From: a virus
Length of the DNA: 64,000 bases
IMG/VR virus record: IMGVR_UViG_3300036715_001783
Span: 16,695 to 80,694 of that record
Direction: 5' to 3' (one strand)
The notes beneath the pieces are model-generated. The model did no database searches. It was not told the origin of the DNA and worked only from the letters and a program-made list of their open reading frames with translations. Both the position numbers and the translations under genes were made by a program. Positions within the stretch are counted from its first letter, which is position 1; each line of letters opens with the position of its first letter. Positions 3,064-42,428 of the stretch are shown one piece after another.

Positions 3064-3092
3064 GGTCTTGGTTCGATTCCACTCGTGGATGC
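3064..3092 (+). repeat. duplicated tRNA-Arg 3' end
   Basis: GGTTCGATTCCACTCGTGGATGC; 14 bp (3079-3092) identical to 2150-2163. Confidence 0.8.
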
Positions 3093-3130
3093 ATAGTTTT
3101 ATTCCCCAGTTATTTCAATAGGTCATTTTT

Positions 3131-3874: not shown

Positions 3875-3910
3875 CATTTATCCCAGAAAACCAGAATAAG
3901 GAAACATACA

Positions 3911-4297: not shown

Positions 4298-4466
4298 CGA
4301 AGTGGAATATGACCTAGGTTGGGGGTCAAGAGTATTAGACACCAAAGAATTTGATACTCTACAAGAAGCAAATGATTATATCGCAGAATTTAACTCACAA
4401 AACACCTGTGATCGTGTACCTGATTGGTATATGGTGGCAGTATTAGCCGGAGACTTATATGGATAA
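4281..4466 (+). CDS. hypothetical protein
   Basis: ORF; EYDLGWG...DWY motif typical of small phage proteins. Confidence 0.6.
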   Translation: MKFCVNEVEYDLGWGSRVLDTKEFDTLQEANDYIAEFNSQNTCDRVPDWYMVAVLAGDLYG

Positions 4467-4830
4467 AAATCCAGTTACCCCATTACAAATGTTATTCATT
4501 AGGGCGTGTAAATCTAATAACCCACAAAAACGATTACAGCGATTGTATCATGCTTTTTATGGGTGTTCTATAGATATCCCACAAGCTGAACTGAATATGC
4601 ACATTAGTAATAATTTAATGGACATTTGTGAACGGTATGAATTAACCAAACTCAGGGATGTGATGGCAGTAATGAACCCATCTCATTATATATCTCGGGG
4701 ATATGCGCCTGATACTCCATATTGGGAGATGGTAAGTATTACCATGTCCAATGTTATTAGATTTACAGAAGTTAAACAATTTCCTGGAATGCGATTACCT
4801 CGAAAATTCAGGACCCCCACAAGCTCATAG
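4459..4830 (+). CDS. hypothetical protein
   Basis: Overlapping ORF in operon. Confidence 0.65.
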   Translation: MDKNPVTPLQMLFIRACKSNNPQKRLQRLYHAFYGCSIDIPQAELNMHISNNLMDICERYELTKLRDVMAVMNPSHYISRGYAPDTPYWEMVSITMSNVIRFTEVKQFPGMRLPRKFRTPTSS

Positions 4831-4839
4831 GATGAACAA

Positions 4840-5277
4840 ATGTCAATACCAAAACAAGTAATAGTTATGAGAACTGATTTAAGAAATCAGGAAGGACATA
4901 AAATTAGAACTGGAAAATTAATTGCCCAAGGAGCGCATGCGTCCATGAAGGCAATTTTAGATGTTGGAACTGTTGTTCGCACGCATCCACAAGAAGATAA
5001 TCAAATGTTAATAATTGATATTACACCAGCACATTATCCTGAACGGTATGGGTGGCTAACAGACAAATTCACAAAAGTGTGTGTTAGTGTTAAGTCTGAA
5101 GAAGAATTATTAGCAATACATCAAGCAGCAGTAGATGCTGGTATTAAATGCACGTCTTTAATATTGGACGCTGGGTTAACAGAATTTGGTGGAGTTGCAA
5201 CATATACTTGTTGTGCAATAGGACCAGATTTCCCAGAAAATATCGATCCCATTACATCCCATTTGAAGTTATTTTGA
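4840..5277 (+). CDS. pth2: peptidyl-tRNA hydrolase, Pth2 family
   Basis: KQVIVMRTDL, GKLIAQGAHAS, DAGLTEF, TCCAIGP, ID.IT.HLKL. Confidence 0.92.
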   Translation: MSIPKQVIVMRTDLRNQEGHKIRTGKLIAQGAHASMKAILDVGTVVRTHPQEDNQMLIIDITPAHYPERYGWLTDKFTKVCVSVKSEEELLAIHQAAVDAGIKCTSLILDAGLTEFGGVATYTCCAIGPDFPENIDPITSHLKLF

Positions 5278-5430
5278 TATGGTGTAATTCCAGTTCCAAT
5301 ATGGGCTATTTAGTCTAACCATTATAGTAGATCGGTGTATGCCCAACGCATCTATTGCGTCTCTAACAGATTCAAACAGTACCCCATCTATATTAACTTG
5401 TTTTCTTAGGTGGGAGTGGCTTTCTGACAT
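5269..5430 (-). pseudogene. homing endonuclease remnant (NUMOD1-type HTH)
   Basis: Minus strand reads MSESH.. then, after a frameshift, DGVLFESVRDAIDALGIHRSTIMVRLNS..W.Y; CATAAATA promoter at 5452-5459. Confidence 0.55.
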
Positions 5431-5469
5431 TTGGGGTTTTTGTGTATTACGTATTTATGAAAGTTAGAG

Positions 5470-5497
5470 TTGACATAATATAGAAATGCTGTATAAT
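5470..5497 (+). promoter_or_regulatory. sigma70-type promoter
   Basis: TTGACA-16-TATAAT; similar sites at 6240, 6972, 28007, 52057, 55861. Confidence 0.75.
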
Positions 5498-5520
5498 ATA
5501 ATTTTTAACAGGAGTAAAAT

Positions 5521-5760
5521 ATGAGTACAATTACTATCAATGTGTGTGGGACCTCCGGCACTGGAAAGACAACAATAGCCTATCTACTTGCAGACTTTTT
5601 AAGCAACACTGGATTTGCGACAGAACTTAATGTCACTGAAGAGTTTGAATTAGAAACTTTCGAAGAGCATTTTGTAGACCGTCTGGAAGCACTAGAAGAA
5701 AAACAATTAAAAATTGTTGTTAATGAAGTACAATTAGCAAGGGAATCTATTCATGAATAA
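5521..5760 (+). CDS. small P-loop protein
   Basis: GTSGTGKTT Walker A. Confidence 0.65.
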   Translation: MSTITINVCGTSGTGKTTIAYLLADFLSNTGFATELNVTEEFELETFEEHFVDRLEALEEKQLKIVVNEVQLARESIHE

Positions 5761-6235
5761 TGATCTGTATACTTTCTTTTGGTCAGGAATGTTTTCACAG
5801 TGGTATGCGTCTCCATTTAAAGTAGATGGAATTCAATACAATTGTGCAGAACAATTCATGATGCACAGTAAAGCCCTGATGTTTGAGGACTATGAGACTG
5901 CTGAATTAATTATGAATACCCCTAACCCAAAAATTCAAAAGCAATTAGGTAGGCAAGTAAAGAATTTTAATGCTGATAGTTGGAATGCAGTGGCAAAAAC
6001 TGTGGTGTATATTGCTAATATTGCAAAATTCACACATAGTCCGACCCTGTTAGAAGCATTATTGGCAACAGGAGATACTTTATTGGTTGAAGCATCTCCA
6101 TATGATACCATTTGGGGCATTGGGATGGGTGAAGTAGAAGCAAGAAAAAGCACCAAAGAACAGTGGAGAGGAACTAATTGGTTGGGAGAAGTTCTTACTG
6201 CTGTTAGAGACGATATTCGTTCTGATACAGTGTAA
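5753..6235 (+). CDS. NADAR/YbiA family protein
   Basis: FSQW, AEQFMM..KA..F.D, LGRQV, LVEASPYD.IWGIG, G.NWLG..L. Confidence 0.92.
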   Translation: MNNDLYTFFWSGMFSQWYASPFKVDGIQYNCAEQFMMHSKALMFEDYETAELIMNTPNPKIQKQLGRQVKNFNADSWNAVAKTVVYIANIAKFTHSPTLLEALLATGDTLLVEASPYDTIWGIGMGEVEARKSTKEQWRGTNWLGEVLTAVRDDIRSDTV

Positions 6236-6297
6236 TTTGTTGATTTTAATGAATATTGTAGTATAATATAATTTTTAACTTGACGGAGAAATAAAAT

Positions 6298-6954
6298 ATG
6301 TTTTTAATTGAAGGTACTGGCGCTATCTTAAGTGCGATGTTTTTGAGTGGTATGTGGTCTGGGATTTTATCAGCGGTGTTTATTATTGCTGCTATTTTAT
6401 TGACAGCATCCAGAGATTTTAGTGTGGCATATGCAATATTTGTTATCTATTTAATGCTGTTTGCCTTGTTTGGGTCGGTTAACCCGTTCATGGTAATAAT
6501 TCACAATCCAGGTGATGTTATTTCATACTTTATCGGGTATTTTGTCGTAGGTGCAGCATATTCGGTCATCAAATTCTGGGATTTTGTAGCATCAGCTGTA
6601 AAAATCACAAAGACCGCAAAACAAGCGTTTATTGAGTTTCATAAATTAAAAATTGGAGTACAAGATAATATTCCAGTGGAGTACGCTGAATCCTGGACTG
6701 TATCAAGACGACAAATTTTAAGACAGTACAGTAAACACAGTTGCAACGATTTATCAGATTTTCAACCATCCAACCAAAAATCACTGATTTTAAATTGGAT
6801 TGCGTTTTGGCCATTTAGTGCTGTAGGTTTGTTTATTGCTGATCCATTGCAAGCATTGGTGGTTGGTATCTACAACCGGTTAGGTTCTGTATATGATCGC
6901 ATTTATAAGAACACTATTGCAAAAACGATCAATATGTCTGATTTGGATCAATAA
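6298..6954 (+). CDS. membrane protein
   Basis: Several hydrophobic helices, WIAFWPFS motif. Confidence 0.7.
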   Translation: MFLIEGTGAILSAMFLSGMWSGILSAVFIIAAILLTASRDFSVAYAIFVIYLMLFALFGSVNPFMVIIHNPGDVISYFIGYFVVGAAYSVIKFWDFVASAVKITKTAKQAFIEFHKLKIGVQDNIPVEYAESWTVSRRQILRQYSKHSCNDLSDFQPSNQKSLILNWIAFWPFSAVGLFIADPLQALVVGIYNRLGSVYDRIYKNTIAKTINMSDLDQ

Positions 6955-7043
6955 TTACCCCTTGTCCTATGTTGATTTTATTGTAGAGATGTGTATAATA
7001 TGCATTTCTACATTAAACAAATTTAAAATAACTCTCAAAGGAG

Positions 7044-8579
7044 ATGCACATGTCTAAACTTAACAAAGCACCAAAGAAAGTAACCAAAACTGTTGCAGTA
7101 GTTGCTGCAAAACACAATCTAACAGTTGCACATTCAGCAAACGGCAATCTACAGTTCAAAAAAGAACCACTGCAACATTTGTATGAGTTAACTGTATCCA
7201 CGTTGTTTGGTAGATCAACATTTTACCGTTCAAGTGATGCATTAGTACAAAGCTTACGAACAGAAGTACGGACTGCTGTTGAAATGGGTGCTCTTGATTT
7301 TGTCGCAAATCTTGCTATCCATGCAAGAGGTGAGATGAATATCAGAACAATTCCGATTGTTTTGGTTGTTGAATTTGCTAAAGCATTGCGTGAACAAGGT
7401 AAAACGTATCCACACTTAAGACACTTGGTTAGAGACGTTATTCAACGTGCTGATCAGATTACTGATATGTATGCTTATTCTCTTGACGTATTTGGAGAAA
7501 AAGGTAAAATCCCTATGGCCATCAAACGAGGTGTTGGTGATGCCTTCAATAATTTCGGTGAATATGCTTTTGCAAAATACAACAGAGCTGGTGCAATCAC
7601 CATTAAAGACGTGTTGCGAATTGTTCACCCTGTGGCAAACGAAGCTAAACAAGGTGCTATTTTTCAAAAAATCATTGATGAGAACCTGGAAACTCCATAC
7701 ACTTGGGAAACAGAACTGTCAAGAAACGGCCAATTACCAGAAGCTGAGCGTAAAAGCAAAGCAAAATTATGGACTGAGTTGTTGACTTCGGAAAAATTGG
7801 GATACATGGCACTGTTAAGAAACATGCGAAATATTCACGATGCAGGCGTGGCACACAATGTGGTTAAGACACATGTTGCTGATATTATTGCTGATGAACA
7901 ACGAGTTGCTGCTTCAAGACAGCTTACGTTTGATTTTTTGCAGGCCTATGATGTGATCAAACCTCTGAATTCCAGTATGGCTACTGCAGTATCAAAAGCT
8001 GTGGATATCAGTGTTAAGTACTTACCAAAAGTTGGTGAAAAAATTTGGGTAATTATTGATTACTCAGGCTCTATGAGTGGTAAAGCAATTGAAACAGCAA
8101 CGTTGTTGGCAGCAGCATTATTGAAAGCCAATGATGGATCAGAACGGTTAGCTGTAACTATGTTTGGTTCAGCAGCAAAGACCATTCATACTGTGGACAC
8201 AAATAACTCTGTGTTAGCTATCCAAAGAGAGTTGTTAACCCACCGTAGAGGGAACATTGCAGGCTCTACAGAGTTTCAAGCGGCAATGAGAGAATACCCA
8301 GGTTTAGGCTTTGTGCCTGATACCATCGTTGTGTTTACAGATGGCGAAATTAACAGATTTCACTACCCTGATTTGCAAAAAAATTCAGGCGATTCTAACA
8401 CAGTTAAACTGGTAGTTAATTTAGATGGAGCACCAACTACTCCATTCATTAAACAAGCTGGATGGTATGCAATGGCTGGCTGGACTCCTGCCATGTTTAA
8501 GTGGGTGCCTGCAATTAGAAACAAAGAAACTGTAGTGGATGCTTTATCTGGTCCATACACAGAACGAAAATCTAAGTAA
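7044..8579 (+). CDS. rsr: Ro60/Rsr TROVE domain protein with vWA domain
   Basis: FAKYNR, DVLRIVHP, TPYTWETELS, LGYMALLRNMRN, MIDAS DYSGS and FTD. Confidence 0.92.
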   Translation: MHMSKLNKAPKKVTKTVAVVAAKHNLTVAHSANGNLQFKKEPLQHLYELTVSTLFGRSTFYRSSDALVQSLRTEVRTAVEMGALDFVANLAIHARGEMNIRTIPIVLVVEFAKALREQGKTYPHLRHLVRDVIQRADQITDMYAYSLDVFGEKGKIPMAIKRGVGDAFNNFGEYAFAKYNRAGAITIKDVLRIVHPVANEAKQGAIFQKIIDENLETPYTWETELSRNGQLPEAERKSKAKLWTELLTSEKLGYMALLRNMRNIHDAGVAHNVVKTHVADIIADEQRVAASRQLTFDFLQAYDVIKPLNSSMATAVSKAVDISVKYLPKVGEKIWVIIDYSGSMSGKAIETATLLAAALLKANDGSERLAVTMFGSAAKTIHTVDTNNSVLAIQRELLTHRRGNIAGSTEFQAAMREYPGLGFVPDTIVVFTDGEINRFHYPDLQKNSGDSNTVKLVVNLDGAPTTPFIKQAGWYAMAGWTPAMFKWVPAIRNKETVVDALSGPYTERKSK

Positions 8580-8587
8580 TACCCAAC

Positions 8588-8615
8588 ACTTCACCAGAGG
8601 TCAATCTGGTGAAGT
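8588..8615 (+). terminator. hairpin after Ro60 gene
   Basis: ACTTCACCAGA/TCTGGTGAAGT stem. Confidence 0.55.
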
Positions 8616-8638
8616 TCCCTCCTATTAAGGACAATAAC

Positions 8639-9694
8639 ATGCAAGAAGACAAATCTCACGATATTCAACCATATATTGATATGGTATATACAAACCACCC
8701 ATGCTTACATCAATATAAATTAGGCAATTCTGAAATATTGGATGTGGATAATACCCCTACATTTGTATCAAACATAACATATGCAGTGTCCCGATTATTG
8801 AAAAATCAATTAAATACGTTACTTCAACAAAGTAGTATTGCAATTGAGGAATATCCAGGAGATTATGTACATAAAGTAATGGTGATATCAGCTCATATAG
8901 TATCAGAAATTATTAATATGGATAGATTGATTGGATTACAAGCTATGCACATGCCAGTAGATATGGCATATATCATGCAAACAACCATGCAAGAAGTCAC
9001 ATTAAAAAATGAACAACAATCGTGGTTAGAGTGGCAAGTGGTAGGACATCCAGTGCAAGCACAATCTCATAAATTATCAATTGTGAGCAATTCTATTGAC
9101 AATGTCCAACCCTTAGTTGTTTCCAAATTAATTATGTATACTTTTGTTGATATGTTGACAGAATATGCTGCAACTGCCCCTGATCGTAGTCATATTCACA
9201 TACCAACGGATAATTTTGATAAACTTTCCTCTGAAATTATTAAACAGTTGGAAATTAATATCAATGCACAATCGGTTAAAATTGCAGTTGGAACTAGTAG
9301 AGGAGTTGGCAATGTCATTTTAACTTCCCCAGCAGGATTTAAGGTACTGCAACAAGTATTTGTTGGGGATTATACTATTGAAATGGTGGATGGGGTGTGT
9401 AATGTGTTGTATAACAACAAAGTCAGATATACAGTGCTTGTGTCAGAGTCACCTGTGTTAGACGGCGAAACCCCAAAAGATATAAAATTTGTAGTTGGCT
9501 ACAGGGGAAAAACAACAGTGGATGCTGGAGTGGTGTTTGCACCATATACACTATTAATACCACATATACAAATTAACCAAACTACGTTTGAACAAGAACT
9601 GACATTTTCTACTAGATTTGGTACATATTTTCCTAAAGAAGGCACACCTGGTGCACACACTTATAATTTATTAACTATTACTTGTTCAAAATAA
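8639..9694 (+). CDS. divergent T4 gp23/gp24 major-capsid-like paralog
   Basis: IGLQAM..P, SRGVGN.ILTSP, VVGYRG...DAGVVFAPY, TF......STRFG. Confidence 0.65.
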   Translation: MQEDKSHDIQPYIDMVYTNHPCLHQYKLGNSEILDVDNTPTFVSNITYAVSRLLKNQLNTLLQQSSIAIEEYPGDYVHKVMVISAHIVSEIINMDRLIGLQAMHMPVDMAYIMQTTMQEVTLKNEQQSWLEWQVVGHPVQAQSHKLSIVSNSIDNVQPLVVSKLIMYTFVDMLTEYAATAPDRSHIHIPTDNFDKLSSEIIKQLEININAQSVKIAVGTSRGVGNVILTSPAGFKVLQQVFVGDYTIEMVDGVCNVLYNNKVRYTVLVSESPVLDGETPKDIKFVVGYRGKTTVDAGVVFAPYTLLIPHIQINQTTFEQELTFSTRFGTYFPKEGTPGAHTYNLLTITCSK

Positions 9695-9704
9695 GGAGAC
9701 ATGC

Positions 9705-10904
9705 ATGGCTGAATTTGAAGTAAAAATACAAAGAATTTATATTACTGAACACCCCAATGCAGATAGCTTACATATTGGACATATTGGCTCCCCTGATGGT
9801 TGGCAGGTTGTTGTTCGTAAGGGAGCATTTGCAGATCAATCTTTATGTGCATACATTGGAGAGAATGCAATTGTTCCTGATGAGATTTTACAAAAGTACA
9901 ATTATTGGAACGAAGACCAAAATAAAGGTATGTTGGCTGGAAGTAAAGGTAACCGGGTCAAGATGATCAAACTCAGAGGAGAGCCCAGTATGGGCATATG
10001 TATTCCTCTGATTGAAGAATGTAGTTGGGACGAAGAGGGAGGCACTCAATTATACGCACACACCCTTGAAGGAGAATATGTAATTGAAGGAGAGGTTGTT
10101 ACAGAATTGTTGGGTGTATACAAACACGAGCCACCAATCCCAGTTGCGATGGCAGGTGAAGTCTACAACGGTGGTACTTCTATTGGTGTGAGTTACGATA
10201 TTGAGAACTCCAAAAACTATCCAAATGTGTTTACTGAAGGTGAAGAAGTACAAGCAACTGAAAAATTGCATGGCTCGTTTTGTCAGATTGTGGTACTACC
10301 ACCAACAGACGAATTTTACAATGAAAATCATGGAGTAGGATTAGCAACCTCCGGAAAAATGGCATACATAGCTGTCTCCAGCAAAGGACTAGGGTCAAAA
10401 GGCTTGTTTCTTAAGCAGAACGAGAAAAATAACAACAATGTGTATCTCCGAGTAGCAAGACCATTGTACAGTACTCTCACAAGTGCTACGGAACAATTGT
10501 CAGATCCACTTGTACCAATCACTGTGTGTGGAGAAGTATTTGGGCATGGAGTGCAAGACTTAACATATGGGTTTTCTCAGGGCAATGTTGGGTTCAGAGT
10601 GTTTGATGTCTATGTGGGATGTCGTGGAATGGGATATTGGTTAAACGACGAAGAATTGGACGAGTGGTGTGCATTCACCTGTATTCCTCGAGTACCACTC
10701 TTATACAGAGGGCCATTTAATCTTGAGAAAATCAATGAGTTGTCCCAGAATACCCATTCTACATTTGATAAGAAACAAATACTTGAAGGGCTGGTGGTTA
10801 AATCAACGAAAGAGCGATTAGTTCATAATTTAGGTAGAGCGTGTTTGAAATACATTAATATTGCTTATTATTTACGTAAGGGCAATGCCACAGAGTTTAA
10901 TTAA
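9705..10904 (+). CDS. RNA ligase, DRB0094/Rnl2-like
   Basis: HPNAD.L, KLRGE.S.G, TEKLHG, GE.FG..VQ, FD, EG.V.K, K.I...Y. Confidence 0.88.
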   Translation: MAEFEVKIQRIYITEHPNADSLHIGHIGSPDGWQVVVRKGAFADQSLCAYIGENAIVPDEILQKYNYWNEDQNKGMLAGSKGNRVKMIKLRGEPSMGICIPLIEECSWDEEGGTQLYAHTLEGEYVIEGEVVTELLGVYKHEPPIPVAMAGEVYNGGTSIGVSYDIENSKNYPNVFTEGEEVQATEKLHGSFCQIVVLPPTDEFYNENHGVGLATSGKMAYIAVSSKGLGSKGLFLKQNEKNNNNVYLRVARPLYSTLTSATEQLSDPLVPITVCGEVFGHGVQDLTYGFSQGNVGFRVFDVYVGCRGMGYWLNDEELDEWCAFTCIPRVPLLYRGPFNLEKINELSQNTHSTFDKKQILEGLVVKSTKERLVHNLGRACLKYINIAYYLRKGNATEFN

Positions 10905-28065: not shown

Positions 28066-30192
28066 ATGACAGAAGTTACAAGTCCAAAAACCCACTATTT
28101 ACGGACGGGGAACAGTATTAGAGTGGTAAGTGCTGCAAATATCAACATTTGTGATGGGTTACCTCCTGGTAATTATATTGTACAGTTTGACCAACAATCT
28201 GGTGAATATTTTTTGGAAACAGTTGATAACTTTACTATTCCAACAAAATTGTACGGTAATGTATTTGACCAAGCAGAGCGTATTATCTCTACGTTTATGG
28301 ATCGGCCTAATACAACTGGAGTATTGTTAACTGGTGAGAAAGGTAGTGGTAAAGCACTTCGTGTTGACCAATCTGTGTATACTCCAATGGGAGAACGTAA
28401 AATTGGTGAGTTGGTTGTAGGTGATATGATTTATGGTGCAGATGGTAAATTAACAACTGTATTGGGAGTATACCCACAAGGTGTGCGAGATATGTTTGAA
28501 GTTACATTTAACGATGGTAGCCAAGTTATTGCAGATGGTGAACATTTATGGGATGTAAAACAAACAACTCGTAGCCAAGTCGGATTTCCAAAACAATCCA
28601 CCAAAAATCGAATTAAATCAACTATCCCAAAAATTCTTACAACAGCACAAATTAAACAGGCACTAAACGCAGGGGTTAAACATGTGGTGCCTTTATGTGG
28701 CCCTGTAGAATTTCCAAAAAGTGATGTTGATGCTGATAGATATACAATTGGGTTGTTGATAGGGGATGGTTGTTTGTGTAATCCAACATTAACAATTAGC
28801 TCAAATGATCCAGCTATCGTAGAACACTTACAGATAGACAATATAATTAAATATACAAGTGGTGTTGATTATAGATTTGTTGACTGTAAACATTTAGTGG
28901 ACCAACTAACTTTGTTGGGGTTAAGAGGTACAAGAAGTAATACTAAGTTTATCCCCGAAAAATTAAAGTACGATTCGGTGGAAAACCGTTTTGCATTATT
29001 ACAAGGGCTAATGGACTCTGATGGAACAGTTAGTAAAAGAGGGGGCATTACATACACCACCGTTAGTAATATCTTAGCAAATGACATGGTGTGGTTGGCA
29101 AGATCTCTCGGATTCAGAAGTTCAATCCAACACACTCGTGCACCTTCATATACACACAATGGAATTAAAAAAATTGGACAATTAGCATATACAGTCCAAT
29201 TAACTGGAGAGCATACTGATAAGGTCTTTCGTTTAGAAAGAAAACAGGCAAGAGTTAAACCATGCTCATCAAATACTAAAACTATTGTGGATATTAAATC
29301 AGTTGCTCCCGATGAAGCTGTATGTATTTTGGTAGACAATGAATCTCATTTGTTTGTAACAAACGATTTTACAGTAACTCACAACACAATGCTCACAAAA
29401 GTCATCAGTACAACATTAGCTGCCAAAGGAATTTCAACAGTCGTTATTAACGAGTGTATGTATGGAGACTTATTCAACAAATTTATTCAGATGATTGATT
29501 CTGAATGTGTAGTGTTATTTGATGAGTTCGAAAAAGTATATCCAACAGATGTCCAAGAAAAAATGCTGACATTGTTGGATGGGGTATTTCCATCAAAGAA
29601 ATTATTCTTATTCACTAGCAATTCATCTAGCCGGATTAATTCACACCTGATGAACCGTCCTGGTCGTATTTTTTATGTGTTGAAATATGCTGGCCTAGAC
29701 AGTGAGTATATTACTCAATACTGTAATGATGTGCTTGTCGATAAGTCTTATATTGATGAAATTTGTCGATTGTCACTATTGTTCTCTGCATTTAACTTTG
29801 ATATGCTTAAAGCATTAGTTGAAGATATGAACAGATATAACGAATCTCCAACTCAAGTTATGAAGCTGTTGAATGCCATTCCAGAAGATACTGGAAACAA
29901 TAGTTTTGATGTTGAATTGTCGTACAAAGGTGAATGGTTTAACAAAGGTCAGTTGGATGATCATGGCGCTTGGAGTGGCAATCCACTGGATCCACGAGGG
30001 GTTGGTATTGAATACCGCAATCCAAACCCAAACGAAGATAATGATTCCAATTATTGGTTAACAGTTCTCCTGTTTAGTGAGAACCTCACCAGAGTGGACA
30101 TCGAAACTGGTACGTTTGAATATGCAAAAGATGATTTTGTACTTCGACTGAAACGAAGCAAAACATTGTCGTACCAATACTCTGCTTTCTAA
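28066..30192 (+). CDS. AAA ATPase containing an intein
   Basis: GEKGSGK|T Walker A split by intein; VLFDEFEK Walker B; NRPGR. Confidence 0.88.
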   Translation: MTEVTSPKTHYLRTGNSIRVVSAANINICDGLPPGNYIVQFDQQSGEYFLETVDNFTIPTKLYGNVFDQAERIISTFMDRPNTTGVLLTGEKGSGKALRVDQSVYTPMGERKIGELVVGDMIYGADGKLTTVLGVYPQGVRDMFEVTFNDGSQVIADGEHLWDVKQTTRSQVGFPKQSTKNRIKSTIPKILTTAQIKQALNAGVKHVVPLCGPVEFPKSDVDADRYTIGLLIGDGCLCNPTLTISSNDPAIVEHLQIDNIIKYTSGVDYRFVDCKHLVDQLTLLGLRGTRSNTKFIPEKLKYDSVENRFALLQGLMDSDGTVSKRGGITYTTVSNILANDMVWLARSLGFRSSIQHTRAPSYTHNGIKKIGQLAYTVQLTGEHTDKVFRLERKQARVKPCSSNTKTIVDIKSVAPDEAVCILVDNESHLFVTNDFTVTHNTMLTKVISTTLAAKGISTVVINECMYGDLFNKFIQMIDSECVVLFDEFEKVYPTDVQEKMLTLLDGVFPSKKLFLFTSNSSSRINSHLMNRPGRIFYVLKYAGLDSEYITQYCNDVLVDKSYIDEICRLSLLFSAFNFDMLKALVEDMNRYNESPTQVMKLLNAIPEDTGNNSFDVELSYKGEWFNKGQLDDHGAWSGNPLDPRGVGIEYRNPNPNEDNDSNYWLTVLLFSENLTRVDIETGTFEYAKDDFVLRLKRSKTLSYQYSAF
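28354..29385 (+). mobile_element. class 3 intein with LAGLIDADG endonuclease (344 aa)
   Basis: Starts with Ala, ends THN|T; HLW, AVCI, VTHN (WCT); GLLIGDG and GLMDSDG. Confidence 0.85.
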
Positions 30193-32427: not shown

Positions 32428-33162
32428 ATGAGCAGAGTTAAAGTTAAACGTAAATCCGAGATTAGAAGATACACCAACACCCAAGAGACAGAAACAACTT
32501 ATGATGACCACCAACCACATAGTTATCATGAAAAAGTAAGTTTTGAACCTGTCAAACCAATGAATAAATCACAGGAACGATACATCAATGCTATCAATGG
32601 AAATATTATTACATTTGGAGTTGGTTGTGCTGGTACTGGTAAAAGTTTTGTTGCAGCAGGAGTTGCAGCAGATATGCTCAGAGAATGTCACATTGATAAA
32701 ATCATCATCACCCGTCCAGTATGTGAAACTGGTAGAAATCTAGGTGCCCTTCCTGGTGAATTAAATGAAAAATATGCTCCTTACATTGAACCTTTAATGG
32801 ACGCCCTTAATAAACAATTAGGAGCTAGTTGGGTTCGCAATCTAGTTAAAAATAACAAAATTATTGCAGCTCCAATGGAGTTTATGCGGGGCAAAACGTT
32901 TGATAATTGTGTTGTCATTATTGATGAAAGTCAGAATACCACACCAGAGCAAATGAAAATGATGCTCACCCGTATAGGCAAAAATTGTAAAATGGTAATC
33001 ACTGGTGATACAAAACAAAGTGATTTAAAGCAACACAATGGATTAACTTATGCTGTTAGTAGAATAGGACGAGTTGATGGAGTTAGTGTTGTGGAATTTG
33101 GTCTCAATGATATTGTTAGACATGGTATTGTTAGAGATGTCCTTATAGCTTGGGAGGACTAA
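32428..33162 (+). CDS. phoH: PhoH family protein
   Basis: GCAGTGKS, ITRP, G.LPG...EK, FMRGKTF, DESQN, TRIG, GD..QSD. Confidence 0.95.
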   Translation: MSRVKVKRKSEIRRYTNTQETETTYDDHQPHSYHEKVSFEPVKPMNKSQERYINAINGNIITFGVGCAGTGKSFVAAGVAADMLRECHIDKIIITRPVCETGRNLGALPGELNEKYAPYIEPLMDALNKQLGASWVRNLVKNNKIIAAPMEFMRGKTFDNCVVIIDESQNTTPEQMKMMLTRIGKNCKMVITGDTKQSDLKQHNGLTYAVSRIGRVDGVSVVEFGLNDIVRHGIVRDVLIAWED

Positions 33163-34198: not shown

Positions 34199-34264
34199 CC
34201 CCCTATTGACATTTAATTTATTTCATGTATAATAGGGTTTTTAAATTAATCAAAAGGAGATAAT
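34199..34264 (+). repeat. 66-bp direct repeat, copy 1 (promoter + RBS of cas operon)
   Basis: 65/66 identical to 42363-42428; TTGACA-16-TATAAT, AAGGAG. Confidence 0.92.
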
Positions 34265-34265
34265 T

Positions 34266-35339
34266 GTGACAAAAGAAAAGGTTCCAAAGGTAAAAACCTG
34301 GGATGAGAAGTGGGGGAATTTAACAGATGATGCTATACTGGTGTCTGGTAATAATGCTGTTCACTATTCATTCAAATATATCAATTCAAACTTACAAGGT
34401 GGAATAAGATTATCTCCATCTGATGTGATATTAGATTCACCATATGTTTCTGGTATAACTGCTATGTGTTATCAACAACTACCTGTTGAATACTTTGCGT
34501 CATCTGTTATCACAATTTATAGTTATTTAGATTACCTTAATAACTCAAATCCAAGTCACCCACACGTTTCACTATTTACAACCAACCATACAGCTAGGTA
34601 TGAATATGGTACAACTGATTTATCTGGAACAAATTGTCGAATGAGACAAGTTTTGATACCTATTGGTGATGGGTACATAAGTGCTACACCAGTTAGTCCA
34701 GCAGGATTTAATTACCTAATGAAACAATTGAATGACCAAATTGAACCCAAAGAACGGTTAACTACTTATTTCATCACGTATGGTGGTGCAAATGGACGGA
34801 ATGTTGGGTGGGAAGCATGCAAAAAACATACCTATGCACTGTGTATGTCAGCTCCAACTGAGGATAGAAACATCCAACATGCGTATTCTATTTTTTACAA
34901 AGGTGTTGACTTGTCTTTGCCTAAACATATTGTACGTGAGTTATTTAATTTGCGACTACACCCCGACATGGTGGGATATACCAAAAAAGAAAATGATATA
35001 TTATCAAGTTTCATCAATGTGGTGTTGCACAAAGCTGTATTAGCTCGAGACATATTAATATCACAGAAGGATGCATTATATGATGCAGAACTATTTGAAA
35101 ATGTTACTGCACCACATAGTTATATTTTTGAATTACATGAGTCAGTAACAAACGATCTTATACAAAGTGGACTAATAAATCCAACTAAACGGAATAAGGA
35201 ATGGAAAGGGTTGTTGGCAACTAAGATTGTGAGCATGTTGGTGGATGAGAAGATCACTATTAGTGGGCAAACACGGTCATTAAATCTTGATGATGACCAA
35301 ATTGCTGAACTATCAGATAAGATGAGAAAAATGCTATGA
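34266..35339 (+). CDS. cas8f: type I-F Cas8f (Csy1), divergent
   Basis: RQVLIP..DGY...TP and YGGAN..NVG motifs; first gene of csy operon. Confidence 0.75.
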   Translation: MTKEKVPKVKTWDEKWGNLTDDAILVSGNNAVHYSFKYINSNLQGGIRLSPSDVILDSPYVSGITAMCYQQLPVEYFASSVITIYSYLDYLNNSNPSHPHVSLFTTNHTARYEYGTTDLSGTNCRMRQVLIPIGDGYISATPVSPAGFNYLMKQLNDQIEPKERLTTYFITYGGANGRNVGWEACKKHTYALCMSAPTEDRNIQHAYSIFYKGVDLSLPKHIVRELFNLRLHPDMVGYTKKENDILSSFINVVLHKAVLARDILISQKDALYDAELFENVTAPHSYIFELHESVTNDLIQSGLINPTKRNKEWKGLLATKIVSMLVDEKITISGQTRSLNLDDDQIAELSDKMRKML

Positions 35340-36139
35340 ACAATATATTAATAATTCCAAGAATTGAAGTGGTCAAATATAATGTATTGGCTTCTCAGTG
35401 GTTAATTTCACCAACCCCTGTACATGCCATAAACATGTTTGTCCACAATTTACAACTTAAAACTGGTATTGTATGCTCACGGGTATCCATTGTGCACCAT
35501 GATTTTTCATACAAGGCTGCTATTGGGAAATATAATGCACCCGCATTTGAAAAGCCAAAGGGAGCATCGTTTATTGATAAGTTAGATTATCCAAGTGACG
35601 GAAAGCCATTAATAGGGCCAAAATCACTATCATTTCAACCTAATTTTTATGGAGACATGACTATTAGTTTGATTATCGAAATTGACGATAGTGATAAGCA
35701 CACAGACGTGGAAGATTTTCTACATACAGCAAAAATTGCTGGTGGGGATATTATATCACACAAACCAATAAAGGTGTGTAATATCGCTGATGTATTTAAC
35801 CACATCAAAACTGGTTTCTTCGTCGAAGATTATAGCCACCTAATTGACCCTTCAAAAAATCAATTAGAACAATTGGTTACAACAATATCTAATAGCAAAG
35901 ATTGGATAAGTGCTGCCACATTGGGGTATGCTAAACTAACACAAGAGATTCACAAGCCAGGAGTACGAAATGGTGTTAAACATTGTTTCGTAGAGCCTTT
36001 AGTGGGGCTAATAAAATATATTCCAATTCACAACACCAAGGATGTTTCTGATATTCGATTTTGGAATTATGAGTGGAACACCCCATCAACTTTTATATGC
36101 AAACAAGAAGCCCTAATTTTAAATTCAGAGGAGAATTAA
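35336..36139 (+). CDS. cas5f: type I-F Cas5f (Csy2)
   Basis: IPRIEV...N, F.H.L, SL.IE, KIAGG.I, GY, H.FVEPL.G. Confidence 0.85.
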   Translation: MNNILIIPRIEVVKYNVLASQWLISPTPVHAINMFVHNLQLKTGIVCSRVSIVHHDFSYKAAIGKYNAPAFEKPKGASFIDKLDYPSDGKPLIGPKSLSFQPNFYGDMTISLIIEIDDSDKHTDVEDFLHTAKIAGGDIISHKPIKVCNIADVFNHIKTGFFVEDYSHLIDPSKNQLEQLVTTISNSKDWISAATLGYAKLTQEIHKPGVRNGVKHCFVEPLVGLIKYIPIHNTKDVSDIRFWNYEWNTPSTFICKQEALILNSEEN

Positions 36140-36140
36140 T

Positions 36141-37196
36141 ATGTCAAAACAAGTTTTTAAAAAGACCCCAAGTGTGTTAGCATTTCAACGGGCTGTATTA
36201 GCAACCGATGCTTTAATTTACAGTGTGTTGGATACCGGTATTGAGTTACCAGTACAAGTGACAGAAGTTGGAATCAGAGGTACTCAAAATATTAATGGTT
36301 CAATAAAAGAAGAAGTGCGAAATCTTCAATTGGTGGACGCTGCTAAAACTGCACCAAATACAAAGTTTGTTAAATTTGTATTTGGTATTAAGTTTATTGA
36401 TATAAGAAAATCATTACACTCCATCGCAAGTGGTAAAGAGGATAGCAAACAAGACGTAAGTGATTTCAAACAAAGTTTAGATGAATTTTTGAACAGAGTA
36501 ACTGGTCAAGAAGATGGAGAATTAGAAATCACTGGTAGTGATGGAATTTTAGATGTTGCAACTCGTTATGCCAGAAATATTGCAAATGCAAAGTGGTTGT
36601 GGCGTAATCGGTTATATGCTTCATCAATCACAACAACCGTTTCTGTTACTGATATCAAATCAAAACAGGCTCCTACAGTGTTTGTGTTTGATTCACTTGA
36701 GGTAGAATCTAAACATTTTGATGATTTTACTAAGGACGAAGAAGAACTTGGTAAACTAATCAACGATAGCTTATTAGGTACACGATTGTTAACCATCGAA
36801 GTATCAAGTGTTGTGGATTTTGGGGTTACAGGCGTGTTTGAAGTATTCCCATCCCAGTTATTCATTGATACTGATGCACTACCAAAAAATAAAAAAGGTA
36901 AATTTTTGTATGCAATCAAAAATAGCAATGATAGCATTGGCCAAGCAGCCATTAGAGATCAAAAAATAACCAATGCGTTGAGAACAATTGATACTTGGTA
37001 CAAAGAATTTGATCAAGTAAAAGATCCTATTCCAGTTGAACCAAATGGTGCAAGTTTAACCCATATGGTCTTTTTTAGAAAAGGTGCAGAATCGTCCTTT
37101 GATATTATTAAACGATTGAACACCATTGATGTTGATAGTGATGAAGGTAAGTTCTTTATATCCGCATTAATTCGTGGCGGCGTTTATTCATCATAA
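36141..37196 (+). CDS. cas7f: type I-F Cas7f (Csy3)
   Basis: SVLAFQR, RGT, N.Q.VD.A, RYA.NIAN..WLWRN, V.PSQ, QKI.NALRTIDTWY, LIRGGV. Confidence 0.95.
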   Translation: MSKQVFKKTPSVLAFQRAVLATDALIYSVLDTGIELPVQVTEVGIRGTQNINGSIKEEVRNLQLVDAAKTAPNTKFVKFVFGIKFIDIRKSLHSIASGKEDSKQDVSDFKQSLDEFLNRVTGQEDGELEITGSDGILDVATRYARNIANAKWLWRNRLYASSITTTVSVTDIKSKQAPTVFVFDSLEVESKHFDDFTKDEEELGKLINDSLLGTRLLTIEVSSVVDFGVTGVFEVFPSQLFIDTDALPKNKKGKFLYAIKNSNDSIGQAAIRDQKITNALRTIDTWYKEFDQVKDPIPVEPNGASLTHMVFFRKGAESSFDIIKRLNTIDVDSDEGKFFISALIRGGVYSS

Positions 37197-37207
37197 GGAA
37201 TAATAAC

Positions 37208-37780
37208 ATGACAATTTTGCATTATGTTGATTTAACACACTCCCGGTTCAATAATATTCCACAAGATAAGTCTAATATATTCAGACTATTGCATGGTATT
37301 TTTAAATCAGATAATCATTTATACAACGTATTCGGGTTAGCTTTTATTAAAAATGGAGTTAGAGTGTTTTGTGAAGATATTGGTGGGTTAGAAGATTTGT
37401 GGACAGAACTAAAAAATAACGATTCTGTAAAAGAATCATTTTATTTAGATAGACCAAATTCTGTTAATTTATCAAAATATATTGGCGGATGGATTTCGCA
37501 TTCAAGGTTCTCTATCCCAACAAGAAAACAAGATAGACACCCAACAGGTCCACTACGAAGAAAACGATTATTAGAAGCAGATGAAAATCCTAACATTTCA
37601 TATGTAAATGTTGGTTCAAAATCACAACAAACCCATTTCAGATATTATGTGAATCATCAATTCCATAATGATTGGAATTATGAGAGTGGTTGGGAAACTA
37701 ATGGTTATGGATTGTCATCATCTACAAGGTTGGTTGCTTTTCCATATTCAATTGGTAGAGAGTATCCGATTTATGAATGA
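37208..37780 (+). CDS. cas6f: type I-F Cas6f (Csy4)
   Basis: HYVD, LLH (catalytic His position), Arg-rich helix, S.S, YGLS. Confidence 0.82.
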   Translation: MTILHYVDLTHSRFNNIPQDKSNIFRLLHGIFKSDNHLYNVFGLAFIKNGVRVFCEDIGGLEDLWTELKNNDSVKESFYLDRPNSVNLSKYIGGWISHSRFSIPTRKQDRHPTGPLRRKRLLEADENPNISYVNVGSKSQQTHFRYYVNHQFHNDWNYESGWETNGYGLSSSTRLVAFPYSIGREYPIYE

Positions 37781-38318
37781 CCCAACATTCACAGGGATAA
37801 TGTTATCTAAGCATTAGTCATCGTGTAGATGATTTAGAAATCCCATTGATAAAGTTAGAGGACAAGTGAACAAATCTACTAATGTGAATGAATTGATGGG
37901 ACATGAAGGAGCATTTGCAAAGAAACTATTTTCACTGTTAGCAACTGGTTTCAACATAACTAATTTTTCAAGACAACGAAATGAACAAGATTCTACACAA
38001 TCTATTAATGTTATGATTAATAACTATTTAGATTATGGTAATTATTTGGCCTATGGATACGCTGCTGTAGTTCTAAATGGGTTGGGATTGAATCATGGGT
38101 TTCCGTTGTTGCACGGTACAACCAGAAGAGATGCTTTAATTTTTGATGTAGCTGATTTATTCAAAGATGGGCATATAATGCCCACTGCTTTCGAATATGC
38201 TACATCAGGAACAAAACAAACAGGACAACTATATAGACAATTAGTTACCAAACATTGCTACGATTCAGGGGTGTTAGATGACGCATTTTTATCCATGAAA
38301 TCCATCGTTTCTTTGTGA
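37773..38318 (+). pseudogene. cas1: cas1 (type I-F) with internal deletion and CRISPR repeat insert
   Basis: N-terminus MNDPTFTGIMLSK-C| then repeat; C-terminal half has EG, LDYGNYLAYG.AA, LHG.TRR.ALIFDVADL.KD. Confidence 0.85.
37813..37840 (+). CRISPR. orphan CRISPR repeat inside cas1
   Basis: Identical to array repeat ATTAGTCATCGTGTAGATGATTTAGAAA. Confidence 0.95.
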
Positions 38319-38333
38319 TTGTTACCTATGTTG

Positions 38334-38362
38334 TTGATTTTAGCAGTAAAATGTGCTAAACT
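38334..38362 (+). promoter_or_regulatory. array promoter in 49-bp leader
   Basis: TTGATT-17-TAAACT ending 5 bp before repeat 1. Confidence 0.55.
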
Positions 38363-38367
38363 ACAGC

Positions 38368-39355
38368 ATTAGTCATCGTGTAGATGATTTAGAAACGCAT
38401 GAATAACGCTACGCGGCATACCGTCATATTAGTCATCGTGTAGATGATTTAGAAATGACATGACAGTTGACATGACAGGTGATGTGAATTAGTCATCGTG
38501 TAGATGATTTAGAAATGATGATGTGATGTTGTCATACAGTCGTGATAATTAGTCATCGTGTAGATGATTTAGAAACAAACAAACCATGCCTGTTTTACCC
38601 ACTACTTATTAGTCATCGTGTAGATGATTTAGAAAAATTCGGTAGTGGCTCTTCAGCACAATCAATGATTAGTCATCGTGTAGATGATTTAGAAAACCAT
38701 ATGAAGGAGTGGTAGCACCATCGGGGCATTAGTCATCGTGTAGATGATTTAGAAACACTTGGAGGATATTTCTTAGATGGACACAAAATTAGTCATCGTG
38801 TAGATGATTTAGAAATAGACCCATTGTCTGTTCCACCAGTATGGTAAATTAGTCATCGTGTAGATGATTTAGAAAATCAAATAATAAAATATTTTTGATT
38901 GATAAATATTAGTCATCGTGTAGATGATTTAGAAAAATGGAGTAATAGTGAGTTTGACAGCTGATGTATTAGTCATCGTGTAGATGATTTAGAAATCAAA
39001 GTATCGCCATATAATCAGCTCCTTCTAATTAGTCATCGTGTAGATGATTTAGAAAATTATATGCAAAAGGTAGATTTACGTTAGTTGATTAGTCATCGTG
39101 TAGATGATTTAGAAAACATAAGTACACATATGGGTATTTGGTTAATAATTAGTCATCGTGTAGATGATTTAGAAAAATCAATTTTTGATATAGATGTGTA
39201 ATTTGAAATTAGTCATCGTGTAGATGATTTAGAAAAGCATACGGGTACAAAGGAGAAGTTGGATTCAATTAGTCATCGTGTAGATGATTTAGAAAACATG
39301 AATAATATACAATCATCGTCTGCAATAATTAGTCATCGTGTAGATGATTTAGAAA
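38368..39355 (+). CRISPR. type I-F CRISPR array, 17 repeats / 16 spacers
   Basis: 28-bp identical repeats (TCATC-GTGTA-GATGA hairpin, TTAGAAA end), 32-bp spacers, exact 60-bp period. Confidence 0.99.
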
Positions 39356-39379
39356 TGTTATAACAATCGGAGGGTAATA

Positions 39380-42358
39380 ATGTTTATAGTAATTGTATCA
39401 TCATGTATTAAGAAAGCAAAAGGTAGAACAAGAAGAGTATTAGATCAATATGCTACCCGGATAGAGTCGAATGCTTGGCAAACACCAATAACCAATATTG
39501 GATTACAACAACTGCACAAGGACCTAAAAAAGGTAGCAACTAGACACACATCAGTAACTTGTTTTGTTAATAGTGGGTACAAACAACTTCAAAAATTATG
39601 GACTGTTGGATCTGAAGCTAGCAAATACAACTTCCAACAAAGTGTGTTCAAGACTAAAGATGGTAGCTCATACCGGTCAACTGTCCCACCACACATCCGC
39701 AAAATTTCATTATTATCCAAAACCGCTGGATATGCTCATGATTTGGGCAAAGCCTCTGTTAAATTTCAAAATAAATTAATAGGGAAGGGTTCCATTGGAG
39801 ATGATATCCGACATGAGTGGATATCAATGAGAGTTCTCCAACAACTTAGAAAAGGAAAATCTTGGCAACAGGCATGGGACTCCCCTATAAACATTGAGTT
39901 TGATGGGTTTATGAAAAATGGGATGACTCAGATCAACGATGTGTTGGATTTTTGTGTGGCTACTCATCATGGACTATTCTGCAAGTATGACACAGAGACT
40001 CGGGAAATAAACAACGATGTAAATAATTTTCACGTAAGAAATGTAAATTTTAAATCATCAGATTTTCAAGTAGCTGGTAACATTGACCCTGATTTATTAT
40101 CTAAAATATCATCAGGTGAAAAAAGATTAAACAAAATGATTTCGGGGGCAACTCCTCTTGAATTGGAATACCTAGCTTGGATTTCCAGAGCTATGTTAAT
40201 TATGGCAGACCAAGTTGTTTCTGCAACACACAAAAACAAATACAAAAAAAGTGAGTTATACGCTAATACCGATAGAATACTAGGTCAAAAAAATGGTCCA
40301 CTTAATCAACCATTAGATTATCATTTAACTAATGTTGGTGAGTATGCATCTAATTATGCATACAAGTTTCTAACAGAAGTTGACTATCCAGCTTTATCCT
40401 CACAAACTATCAGCAATATTTTAACAAAATCAACAGATACCAGATTTGTTTGGCAGGATATTGCTTGTGAACATTTTATAGCTCAACCTGAATCAAATTT
40501 TTTAATTTTCAATATTGCAAATACAGGATGTGGGAAAACTCTAGCAAACCTAAAACTTGCAACAACTATTTCAAAAAATGAAGAACAAACAAGAATATCT
40601 ATCTGCCTCAATTTACGCTCTCTAACTCTACAAACTGGTAGAGAATATAACCGTATATTGAACCCACATGAAATAGACGCATTTGCTGTCCTTATAGGGG
40701 ACAAAACTACCCAACAACTATTTGATAATGACTGCGACGAAAATATTACCGAACCTAATATTGACATCGACGAAAACTTCCATATAAACAAGGAGTTACC
40801 TGAATGGTTGGAATTATTTTGTGATCTGTCATCAAATAGGAACACTATATTAGCGGCACCATTATTAGTGTCCACTGTAGATTATTTAATAAAAGCAGCT
40901 ACCCCAAGTGCACAAGGCCACCATGTTGCAAGTTTAATTAGAGCAGCCTCATCTGATTTAATATTAGATGAAGTTGACGGATATGAACCTAATCAATTGG
41001 TAATTATATGTAAATTGATTGAATTAGTTTCTTTTTTCGGTAGAAACGTAATATGCTCGACCGCTACTTTATCCACACCTGTTGCTGATTTAATATTGAT
41101 AGCGTTTAATAGAGGTAGAGAAGCTCGACAATTGTTGATTGATAGTAATCACACATCCCAATTTGGAATTGTGGATAATATAATTAAACCATCATCAATA
41201 TCATTTGGGGAAGATGTAAAAACTCATTACATGAACACAATAACAACCAAAAATAATTTAAACAATCAAGTAATAACAAAACTTGCAAAATTAACTCGTG
41301 TTCCAGAGGTAACAGAAGAATGTTGGTTTAATTCAATAGCAGAGGATTGTGTTGAACACCATAACAACCACCAGTGGATATACAAAGAAGCAACAGTTTC
41401 AATTGGATTGATACGAGTTGCTAATATTAAACATGGAATTGCCTTATCCAAATTCTTGACACAAACCCTATCAAACGTAAAGGTATGTTTTTATCACGCA
41501 AATGATTTCAAAATCGCTAGGTTTCACAAAGAACAAATATTAGATAGATTATTAACTAGAAAAAATCCCAACAAGGTGTATTCGGATTTGGATAGTGAAT
41601 TGGAGCCTGGAAAAGATATAATGTTTATAGTTGTAGCAACTCCTGTTGAAGAAATAGGAAGAGACCATGATTTTGATTGGGCTATTATTGAGCCATCAAG
41701 TTGCTCATCTATTATACAAACAGCTGGTCGAGTCAATCGACACCGTCTAATTAAGCAAACAGTTCCTAATATTAGTATATTGCAATACAATCATCGAAAT
41801 ATTAACAACCACAACAAATCAACAAAGATATCATTTGTGAGACCTGGATTGGAATGTCAATTAATTGGAGGAACATCTCACCCATCCAAAGATATAGAAC
41901 AATTATTGCCATGGGATAATGATGTATTGCAAATATCGTCAACGTTAAGATTTAATAGTGTGTTTGCAAGTTGTGATGATACAGCAATATCAAATACCAC
42001 TACTCACGCTATTAAAAGGTTTTTTTCTACTAAGCACACCCTATTATTAAAAAATAAATTTTATAATGACTATAGGTTGCGTGATAATGAACAACAAACT
42101 GAAATTATATTAGGCTGGGAAAATGGTGACACTTATAAATTTTGTGAGTATAAACAACTACCCGTTATAAGGACCAATAAAGTATTAGTTGATCCACCAT
42201 ATGGAAATACTTGGCTATCATTATCACACCTCGAGTTGAATAAAAAATGTAAGGCTAATGATGTTCCATACTATATTGGTAAATCATTATCCGTAAGAAA
42301 AGTTAAAGACGAAACAAGCCTTCACCACGATTGGTCATTTGGTTGGTGGATGGAATAA
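39380..42358 (+). CDS. cas3: type I-F Cas2-Cas3 fusion
   Basis: Cas2 N-terminus (KKA...TRRVLDQ.A.R....WQTPIT), HDLGK, RHE, THH, AD..VS, TGCGKT, DEVD, Q.AGRV.RH. Confidence 0.95.
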   Translation: MFIVIVSSCIKKAKGRTRRVLDQYATRIESNAWQTPITNIGLQQLHKDLKKVATRHTSVTCFVNSGYKQLQKLWTVGSEASKYNFQQSVFKTKDGSSYRSTVPPHIRKISLLSKTAGYAHDLGKASVKFQNKLIGKGSIGDDIRHEWISMRVLQQLRKGKSWQQAWDSPINIEFDGFMKNGMTQINDVLDFCVATHHGLFCKYDTETREINNDVNNFHVRNVNFKSSDFQVAGNIDPDLLSKISSGEKRLNKMISGATPLELEYLAWISRAMLIMADQVVSATHKNKYKKSELYANTDRILGQKNGPLNQPLDYHLTNVGEYASNYAYKFLTEVDYPALSSQTISNILTKSTDTRFVWQDIACEHFIAQPESNFLIFNIANTGCGKTLANLKLATTISKNEEQTRISICLNLRSLTLQTGREYNRILNPHEIDAFAVLIGDKTTQQLFDNDCDENITEPNIDIDENFHINKELPEWLELFCDLSSNRNTILAAPLLVSTVDYLIKAATPSAQGHHVASLIRAASSDLILDEVDGYEPNQLVIICKLIELVSFFGRNVICSTATLSTPVADLILIAFNRGREARQLLIDSNHTSQFGIVDNIIKPSSISFGEDVKTHYMNTITTKNNLNNQVITKLAKLTRVPEVTEECWFNSIAEDCVEHHNNHQWIYKEATVSIGLIRVANIKHGIALSKFLTQTLSNVKVCFYHANDFKIARFHKEQILDRLLTRKNPNKVYSDLDSELEPGKDIMFIVVATPVEEIGRDHDFDWAIIEPSSCSSIIQTAGRVNRHRLIKQTVPNISILQYNHRNINNHNKSTKISFVRPGLECQLIGGTSHPSKDIEQLLPWDNDVLQISSTLRFNSVFASCDDTAISNTTTHAIKRFFSTKHTLLLKNKFYNDYRLRDNEQQTEIILGWENGDTYKFCEYKQLPVIRTNKVLVDPPYGNTWLSLSHLELNKKCKANDVPYYIGKSLSVRKVKDETSLHHDWSFGWWME

Positions 42359-42362
42359 TATA

Positions 42363-42428
42363 CCCCCTATTGACATTTAATTTATTTCGTGTATAATAGG
42401 GTTTTTAAATTAATCAAAAGGAGATAAT
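42363..42428 (+). repeat. 66-bp direct repeat, copy 2
   Basis: One mismatch versus 34199-34264. Confidence 0.92.

Follow-up and report, generated by a model that had tools for sequence, protein, structure and literature searches.

An apparent replacement of the core of cas1 by one CRISPR repeat in a type I-F1 locus carried by a phage

CRISPR systems carried by phages commonly lose their adaptation genes, as surveys of huge phages have found. Off-target integration duplicates the local target as a pseudo-repeat and inserts a spacer. Such "neo-CRISPR" events, brought about by Cas1–Cas2, are said to have been described by Nivala et al. in 2018. Single CRISPR repeats also occur in viral genomes as Racrs, solitary repeat units that act as RNA anti-CRISPRs (Camara-Wilpert et al. 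2023, PMC10651486); they are intergenic, unlinked to cas genes or arrays and directly downstream of their own promoter, and they mimic the host repeat to poison host complexes. A lone I-F repeat was bound and cut by Cas6f, and a working crRNA needed a second repeat (PMC10651486). Within I-F loci, autoregulatory mini-arrays, or cr-like RNAs, have been reported between cas2/3 and cas8f (Shmakov et al. 2023, bioRxiv 10.1101/2023.03.03.530964); each consists of two degenerate repeats flanking a short spacer with a partial match to the cas8 promoter by a PAM, and close relatives conserve them. Adaptation-less phage systems, solitary viral repeats and standalone repeats in cas loci are each already known separately. 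New in the locus described here is a canonical repeat that precisely replaces the core of cas1, which is a variant of these themes and not a new kind of system. We did not find such an exact repeat-for-gene replacement described as a form of decay.

The locus lies on an 80.7-kb IMG/VR virus record (IMGVR_UViG_3300036715_001783) that is an estimated ~30% complete. The record is a fragment of a huge phage, whose whole genome is estimated at ~270 kb (80.7 kb at ~30% completeness). Coordinates refer to the window, the stretch of 64,000 nt analyzed here (positions 16,695 to 80,694 of the record). The DNA of this phage was found in microbial-mat and sediment metagenomes, and no RNA data set was listed as containing the locus. 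Close relatives of the phage or its locus were found neither among GenBank phages nor in IMG/VR (queried with the repeat, Cas7f and Cas1 P0004), and JGI metagenomes yielded Cas7f relatives at 29–39% identity and nothing closer. Upstream of the CRISPR–Cas genes, an AAA ATPase gene with a LAGLIDADG/Hom_end intein-like insertion and a PhoH-like gene (28066–30192 and 32428–33162) represent typical large-phage cargo.

The CRISPR–Cas genes form an 8.1-kb cassette, all on one strand (plus), flanked by a 66-bp direct repeat whose two copies lie at 34199–34264 and 42363–42428 (65/66 identical). Both copies hold a perfect TTGACA-16-TATAAT promoter and a ribosome-binding site (RBS), so that one such unit stands at each end of the cassette. 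The promoter of the first copy (34206–34233), which is accompanied by the RBS of cas8f, likely drives the whole locus, and no terminator-like site was detected between the two copies. The GC content of the cassette (0.33–0.355) equals that of the neighboring phage DNA. The first gene is a putative cas8f (csy1; 357 aa, 34266–35339), assigned from its position and from a weak resemblance to relatives' cas8f in tblastn; it has no match in Pfam or NCBIfam. It is followed by cas5f (csy2; 267 aa, 35336–36139; PF09614, E = 3e-12; TIGR02565), cas7f (csy3; 351 aa, 36141–37196; PF09615, E = 4e-60; TIGR02566, E = 3e-66) and a divergent cas6f (csy4; 190 aa, 37208–37780), whose PF09618 match (E = 0.0055) falls under the family cutoff and whose assignment is also backed by position and by tblastn matches to the cas6f of relatives. 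At the distal end, cas2/3 (992 aa, 39380–42358) encodes a Cas2 domain, an HD nuclease and a helicase (profile matches to Cas3_I-F_Cas2, HD and helicase; TIGR02562, E = 3e-186).

The effector genes are those of a type I-F1 system, comprising Csy3, Csy2, a weak Csy4 and a Cas2–Cas3 fusion, with Cas8f weakly assigned. The array is likewise of this type, with 28-nt repeats, a hairpin with a 5-nt loop, an 8-nt handle ending in AGAAA and 32-nt spacers. An intact cas1, which belongs to the adaptation module of type I-F1, is missing. Judged from its gene content, the phage appears to retain the full interference set (Csy complex genes, array and Cas2/3), and the addition of spacers by its own Cas1 would be impossible.

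What is left of cas1 consists of two parts in the same reading frame. The N-terminal stub (37773–37812; 13 codons plus 1 nt) starts at an ATG that overlaps the cas6f stop and reads MNDPTFTGIMLSK followed by C, exactly as the original prediction had claimed. Its identity as Cas1 is borne out by alignment to residues 1–13 of the closest full-length Cas1f (xxGIMLSKRANV; consensus GIMLSKRANV). The stub runs directly into a solitary CRISPR repeat, hereafter R0 (37813–37840), which is 28/28 identical to the array repeats and, as proposed, brings stop codons into frame: a TAG at 37815–37817, where the stub ORF terminates, and a TGA at 37830–37832. An alternative genetic code was considered and rejected, with TGA and TAA terminating cas genes and both TAG and TGA in frame within R0.

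The C-terminal half (37842–38318; 158 codons) resumes after the repeat, in agreement with the earlier reading, as PIDKVRGQVNK...GHEG...LLHG...FDVAD up to the stop at 38318. It contains no internal stop, offers GTG 37866 and ATG 37896 as candidate internal starts, and places GHEG, LLHG and FDVAD in nearly invariant Cas1f columns. The α-helical catalytic domain of Cas1f is thus represented with all four metal-binding residues (E, H, D and D) retained (TIGR03637/PF01867). The match to TIGR03637 covers positions 161–305 of 307 (E = 1e-40) at 140 bits, below the 150-bit cutoff of that model; the segment corresponds to residues 182–306 of Pseudomonas aeruginosa Cas1 (3GOD) and is 51–53% identical to the closest full-length Cas1f proteins (P0001–P0004). 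The earlier estimate that roughly half of Cas1 is missing agrees with the TIGR03637 and 3GOD alignments, in which ~147 of the 307 model positions are absent. Lost are the entire β-strand domain and the helices with which the catalytic domain begins, so that the single ORF of ~305–325 aa with an N-terminal β-strand domain (the dimer and Cas2 interface) typical of Cas1f does not exist here. The missing middle (model positions ~14–160) is encoded nowhere else in the 80.7-kb record, and among 5.8 billion proteins we found no Cas1f family consisting of the C-terminal half alone, only edge-truncated fragments. With a genuine Cas1f stub, two in-frame stops and the β-strand domain gone, the claim that the integrase had been knocked out holds.

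The 28-nt repeat occurs in 18 mismatch-free copies in the 80.7-kb record, namely R0 and the 17 array copies, and R0 sits 527 nt upstream of the array. R0 forms the same hairpin as the array repeats, with a 7-bp stem, a 5-nt loop and a 6-nt single-stranded tail (z = -3.8). By-eye, position-by-position alignment to the canonical I-F repeat, from which a U–A stem base pair in the phage repeat differs (C–G in the canonical one), sets the 8-nt handle UUUAGAAA at 37833–37840, and Cas6f should accordingly be predicted to cut after 37832. R0 is probably transcribed, given a single consensus promoter for the operon and the lack of a terminator within it; being identical to the array repeats, it should therefore be cut by Cas6f if the array is. 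Such a cut would end the cas8f–cas6f mRNA in a Cas6f-bound hairpin and would release a 555-nt RNA carrying the handle, the C-terminal half of cas1, the leader and the first array hairpin. The suggestion that the left junction mimics the leader junction did not hold up: CTAAGC|ATT and the leader's CTACAGC|ATT have AGC alone in common, a shared suffix at least this long was found at 48 of 5000 random genome sites, and gapped similarity of 25 nt is at chance level (1132/5000).

Like the Racrs, R0 is one CRISPR repeat carried by a virus, with predicted Cas6f binding and cutting; unlike them, it interrupts a cas gene that belongs to the phage's own system, a short distance from that system's array. 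Its classification as a Racr was rejected on this position within cas1 and the cas operon, on its proximity to a 17-repeat array and on the lack of a close promoter. With the mini-arrays of Shmakov et al. it shares the standing of a standalone repeat in a type I-F cas locus, and it differs in being perfect, single and intragenic and in having no detectable target. It was also rejected as a regulatory mini-array, having neither a second repeat before the array nor, within the 80.7 kb searched, a target with a CC PAM in a cas or cargo promoter.

Cas7f relatives at 36–42% identity define an I-F1 sublineage, some twenty members of which have the order cas6f–cas1–leader–array. It includes Oxalobacter, Zoogloea, Thauera, Azovibrio, Bilophila, Thiobaca, a Methylococcales MAG and three IMG/VR records. 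These loci are arranged as cas2/3 (on either strand), cas8f–cas5f–cas7f–cas6f, cas1, a leader of 110–125 nt and the array, with a second array ahead of cas2/3 in some members. In the intact Oxalobacter locus L030, the cas6f stop overlaps the cas1 start as it does in the phage. The gene order of the phage (csy genes, cas1, array, cas2/3) corresponds to the nearest bacterial order after circular permutation, which would fit a captured circle that had been excised via recombination between two flanking arrays.

A parallel to the stub is found in L010 (metagenome contig Ga0075157_10026917, region 1675–1880; L009 is the same organism), a member of the same sublineage with cas7f, cas6f, a Cas1 N-terminal ORF over the cas6f stop and then repeats. 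This ORF (57 codons) carries the Cas1 N-terminus SIPLWQRANVILIEQARVLQKDG and the array starts 4 nt past its stop, with a repeat 19/28 identical to that of the phage. Unlike in the phage, Cas1 similarity ends near residue 31, ~31 nt before the first repeat (the final eight codons of that ORF, its stop and the 4 nt), and neither the C-terminal half of cas1 nor a leader follows. The L010 stub looks like a plain deletion, an event independent of the one in the phage. Two Halomonadaceae loci, L029 and L032, have no cas1, a 940-aa Cas3 without a Cas2 domain and an array directly after cas6f, and cas1 is lost more than once in the sublineage. Their hosts are Halomonas sp. SpR8 and Modicisalibacter tunisiensis, and in L029 the system lies at 3075–9728. 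In Halomonas sp. SpR8 there is, in addition, a complete canonical I-F1 locus (L066), which could serve its cas1-less locus as an in-trans source of adaptation.

Copies of the repeat within a cas gene were found in 0 of 73 other I-F loci with arrays. In seven loci of the sublineage, a lone repeat lies where cas2/3 and cas8f diverge, in the orientation of cas8f (L031:5901, L032:5754, L033:5868, L037:5901, L039:5877, L040:5803 and L046:3867), with up to 4/28 mismatches in the four loci checked over the full repeat. The canonical I-F1 loci L060, L085, L099 and L100 each have one repeat of opposite orientation at ~5200–5600, a placement made by coordinates only. These lone repeats probably represent the autoregulatory mini-arrays that Shmakov et al. 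(2023) reported.

The order of the two cas1 parts around R0 was checked against Logan k=31 contigs of one metagenome run, X1, which may be the source sample itself. In that independent assembly one contig corresponds to 37035–37839 and the next to 37811–38394, so that both R0 junctions are present. The contigs break at R0 because the 31-mer at which they meet, AGC plus the repeat, also occurs at the first array repeat. The concern voiced with the original prediction, a repeat-driven misassembly, is thereby answered in part: both junctions recur and no branch toward an intact cas1 leaves 37812 or 37841 in the X1 k=31 contigs, whereas no contig or single read bridging R0 was seen. In runs X2–X4, no cover was listed for 37755–37871, which speaks neither for nor against the junctions. 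An artefact would mean that two true junctions were joined through the 28-nt repeat, either over a collapsed second array between stub and C-terminal half or from mixed forms, one a deletion form running cas1N–repeat–spacer 1 and the other running leader–repeat–cas1C. The low depth of X1 (about 6–7x), the ambiguity of short-k graphs at the shared 31-mer and the missing bridging record would all be in keeping with this; De Bruijn assemblers, however, do not invent junction k-mers. The X1 contig from 37811 begins with GC, the repeat and T and ends at a branching node, and the sequence before the cas1C-side repeat must end in AGC, as do the stub, the leader or a 1-in-64 spacer. The alternative pairing would also turn cas1C–leader–repeat into a closed 555-bp cycle without entry, yet its depth is that of its surroundings (7.5 for the cas1C–leader segment against 6.1 and 6.8 in the flanks), and at equal depth the sole linear path using this segment is the assembled one. 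We regard an artefact as very unlikely and are confident, short of certainty, that the assembled order cas1N–R0–cas1C is real.

The reading that we favor, with a probability of roughly 0.6, is that of a dead cas1 in a phage I-F1 cassette, produced by a rearrangement that handled the repeat as a unit, with R0 an incidental extra Cas6f site. The ancestor would have had the order cas8f–cas5f–cas7f–cas6f–cas1–leader–array with cas2/3 alongside, as in the nearest bacterial relatives, and one rearrangement or two linked ones would have removed cas1 codons ~14–160 and left exactly one array repeat instead. A simple deletion is not expected to produce exact repeat borders; here the edges of the insert are the edges of the repeat on both sides, which makes it most likely that the event dealt with the repeat as one block, be it through repeat–repeat recombination of rearranged intermediates, integrase joining chemistry at the borders, or both. 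No simple known mechanism yields cas1N–repeat–cas1C in one step. The original prediction had offered ectopic repeat integration or recombination; recombination between repeats remains a candidate, whereas ectopic spacer integration does not fit as the direct cause, since it duplicates the local target and deposits no canonical repeat. Neo-CRISPR integration resembles this case in that integrase marks outside the array are a candidate source of the scar, and differs in that it neither places a canonical repeat nor deletes ~440 bp. A break in cas1 mended by microhomology-mediated template switching, with the exact borders a coincidence, is another route: the CTAAGC end would prime on the CAGC of the leader–repeat junction, copy ~28 nt and rejoin via A-rich microhomology. 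The AGC at the left junction, with its infrequent suffix, the donor repeat just 555 nt away and a right border ending in AGAAA within an AT-rich gene, where microhomology could be hidden, all speak for such a switch, but by a rough estimate both borders would fall on repeat edges by chance about once in several hundred cases, and we consider it unlikely. The inactivation looks recent from sequence, because R0 is unmutated, the 158-codon C-terminal half is open with its four catalytic residues and the Cas2 domain is kept. A perfect R0 together with an uninterrupted 158-codon ORF would also be compatible with a selected function, in which case R0 would be maintained as an RNA element because Cas6f cleavage there is useful: by separating and stabilizing the cas8f–cas6f mRNA, by feedback on Cas6f/Cas7f levels, or by giving a cr-like RNA of cas1 sequence that could direct the complex to intact cas1 genes in rival phages or hosts. 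R0 does fold in context within a terminator-free operon, the last array repeat 24 nt before cas2/3 means that repeat-defined mRNA ends are already present, and standalone regulatory or inhibitory repeats are documented in type I-F (bioRxiv 10.1101/2023.03.03.530964; PMC10651486). The non-canonical guide that had been envisaged did not find support, however. No second repeat-like sequence lies 20–40 nt downstream or anywhere between R0 and the array (best 17/28, equal to background), and the Racr study needed an added repeat for a working crRNA (PMC10651486). For the 32 nt after R0, the 80.7 kb searched of the estimated ~270-kb genome contain no partial target that combines a seed with a PAM; the best match, 22/32 at 34358, has mismatches at seed positions 2–4, no CC PAM and a score that the array spacers reach by chance (21–23/32). 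No promoter-like site was found within ~165 nt upstream of R0 (the nearest, a weak 9/12 at 37621–37648, is inside cas6f) or between R0 and the array, and nothing comparable occurs in the 73 other loci. A selected role for R0 is quite improbable on this evidence, and its processing is probably a tolerated side effect rather than a trait under selection.

A bolder version of the rearrangement, which we hold to be very doubtful, is that the integrase acted on its own gene. A break or a Cas3-made gap in cas1 would come first; Cas1–Cas2/3 would then have joined the broken ends to the borders of the first repeat, as it does a prespacer, and end-joining with repeat–repeat recombination would have given cas1N–repeat–cas1C–leader–repeat. 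Were this true, the 527 bp of cas1C plus leader would be an oversized, self-derived spacer and the integrase would have destroyed itself. CRISPR loci on mobile elements would then have a natural way of being rearranged, permuted and stripped of adaptation genes, namely the joining of long DNA ends at repeat borders.

With adaptation-deficient systems of phages and mobile elements the locus shares a phage-borne interference module, its own array and the loss of the acquisition gene. In the type I-F system of Vibrio phage ICP1, cas1 is kept, whereas here it is gutted; most huge-phage systems are simply without cas1, whereas here a datable scar was left, in which one repeat separates a 13-codon stub from an intact catalytic half. 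The locus offers a dated snapshot of a phage CRISPR system that is losing learning and keeping killing, with cas1 alone gutted and the interference genes, the array and the Cas2 domain intact. The scar may point to repeats, and perhaps to the integrase itself, as drivers of rearrangement in these loci. Annotators should treat such a system as interference-only. R0 is, moreover, a simple test case for Cas6f processing of a lone in-operon repeat and for its effect on cas mRNA; if it is a mere accident, it is a curiosity of a single uncultured phage.

Downstream of cas1, the 49 nt (38319–38367) that separate its stop from the first array repeat are a leader remnant, compared with 110–125 nt in relatives. 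In the array (38368–39355), 17 copies of the 28-nt repeat, all identical, alternate with 16 spacers, each 32 nt long. Terminal CRISPR repeats usually degenerate; the terminal repeat here (39328–39382 region) is perfect, with no degeneration. The cas2/3 start codon follows the last repeat after 24 nt that include an RBS, GGAGGG, and Cas6f cleavage at this repeat would set the 5' end of the cas2/3 mRNA.

At the end of cas6f (37734–37765), a deeper contig in runs X1 and X3 shares ~31 nt with the phage and then continues as unrelated sequence; its letters before 37734 are CTTTATTTTCGAATACTAATTGCAGAGCTT, the 30 letters of this loose end are absent from the window, and its depth is roughly 20–40x as estimated from bin depths. 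Spacer 1 (38396–38427) has no exact match in IMG/VR. A GC-rich matching sequence, preceded by CC, the type I-F PAM, is present in Logan contigs of all four runs, with 3 mismatches in X4. The spacers at 38756, 38876 and 39296 also match foreign contigs from the same samples. Spacer GC content spans 0.09 to 0.56, and given this wide range the targets of the phage seem to include both GC-rich DNA, possibly of the host or a host element, and AT-rich DNA, possibly of another phage.
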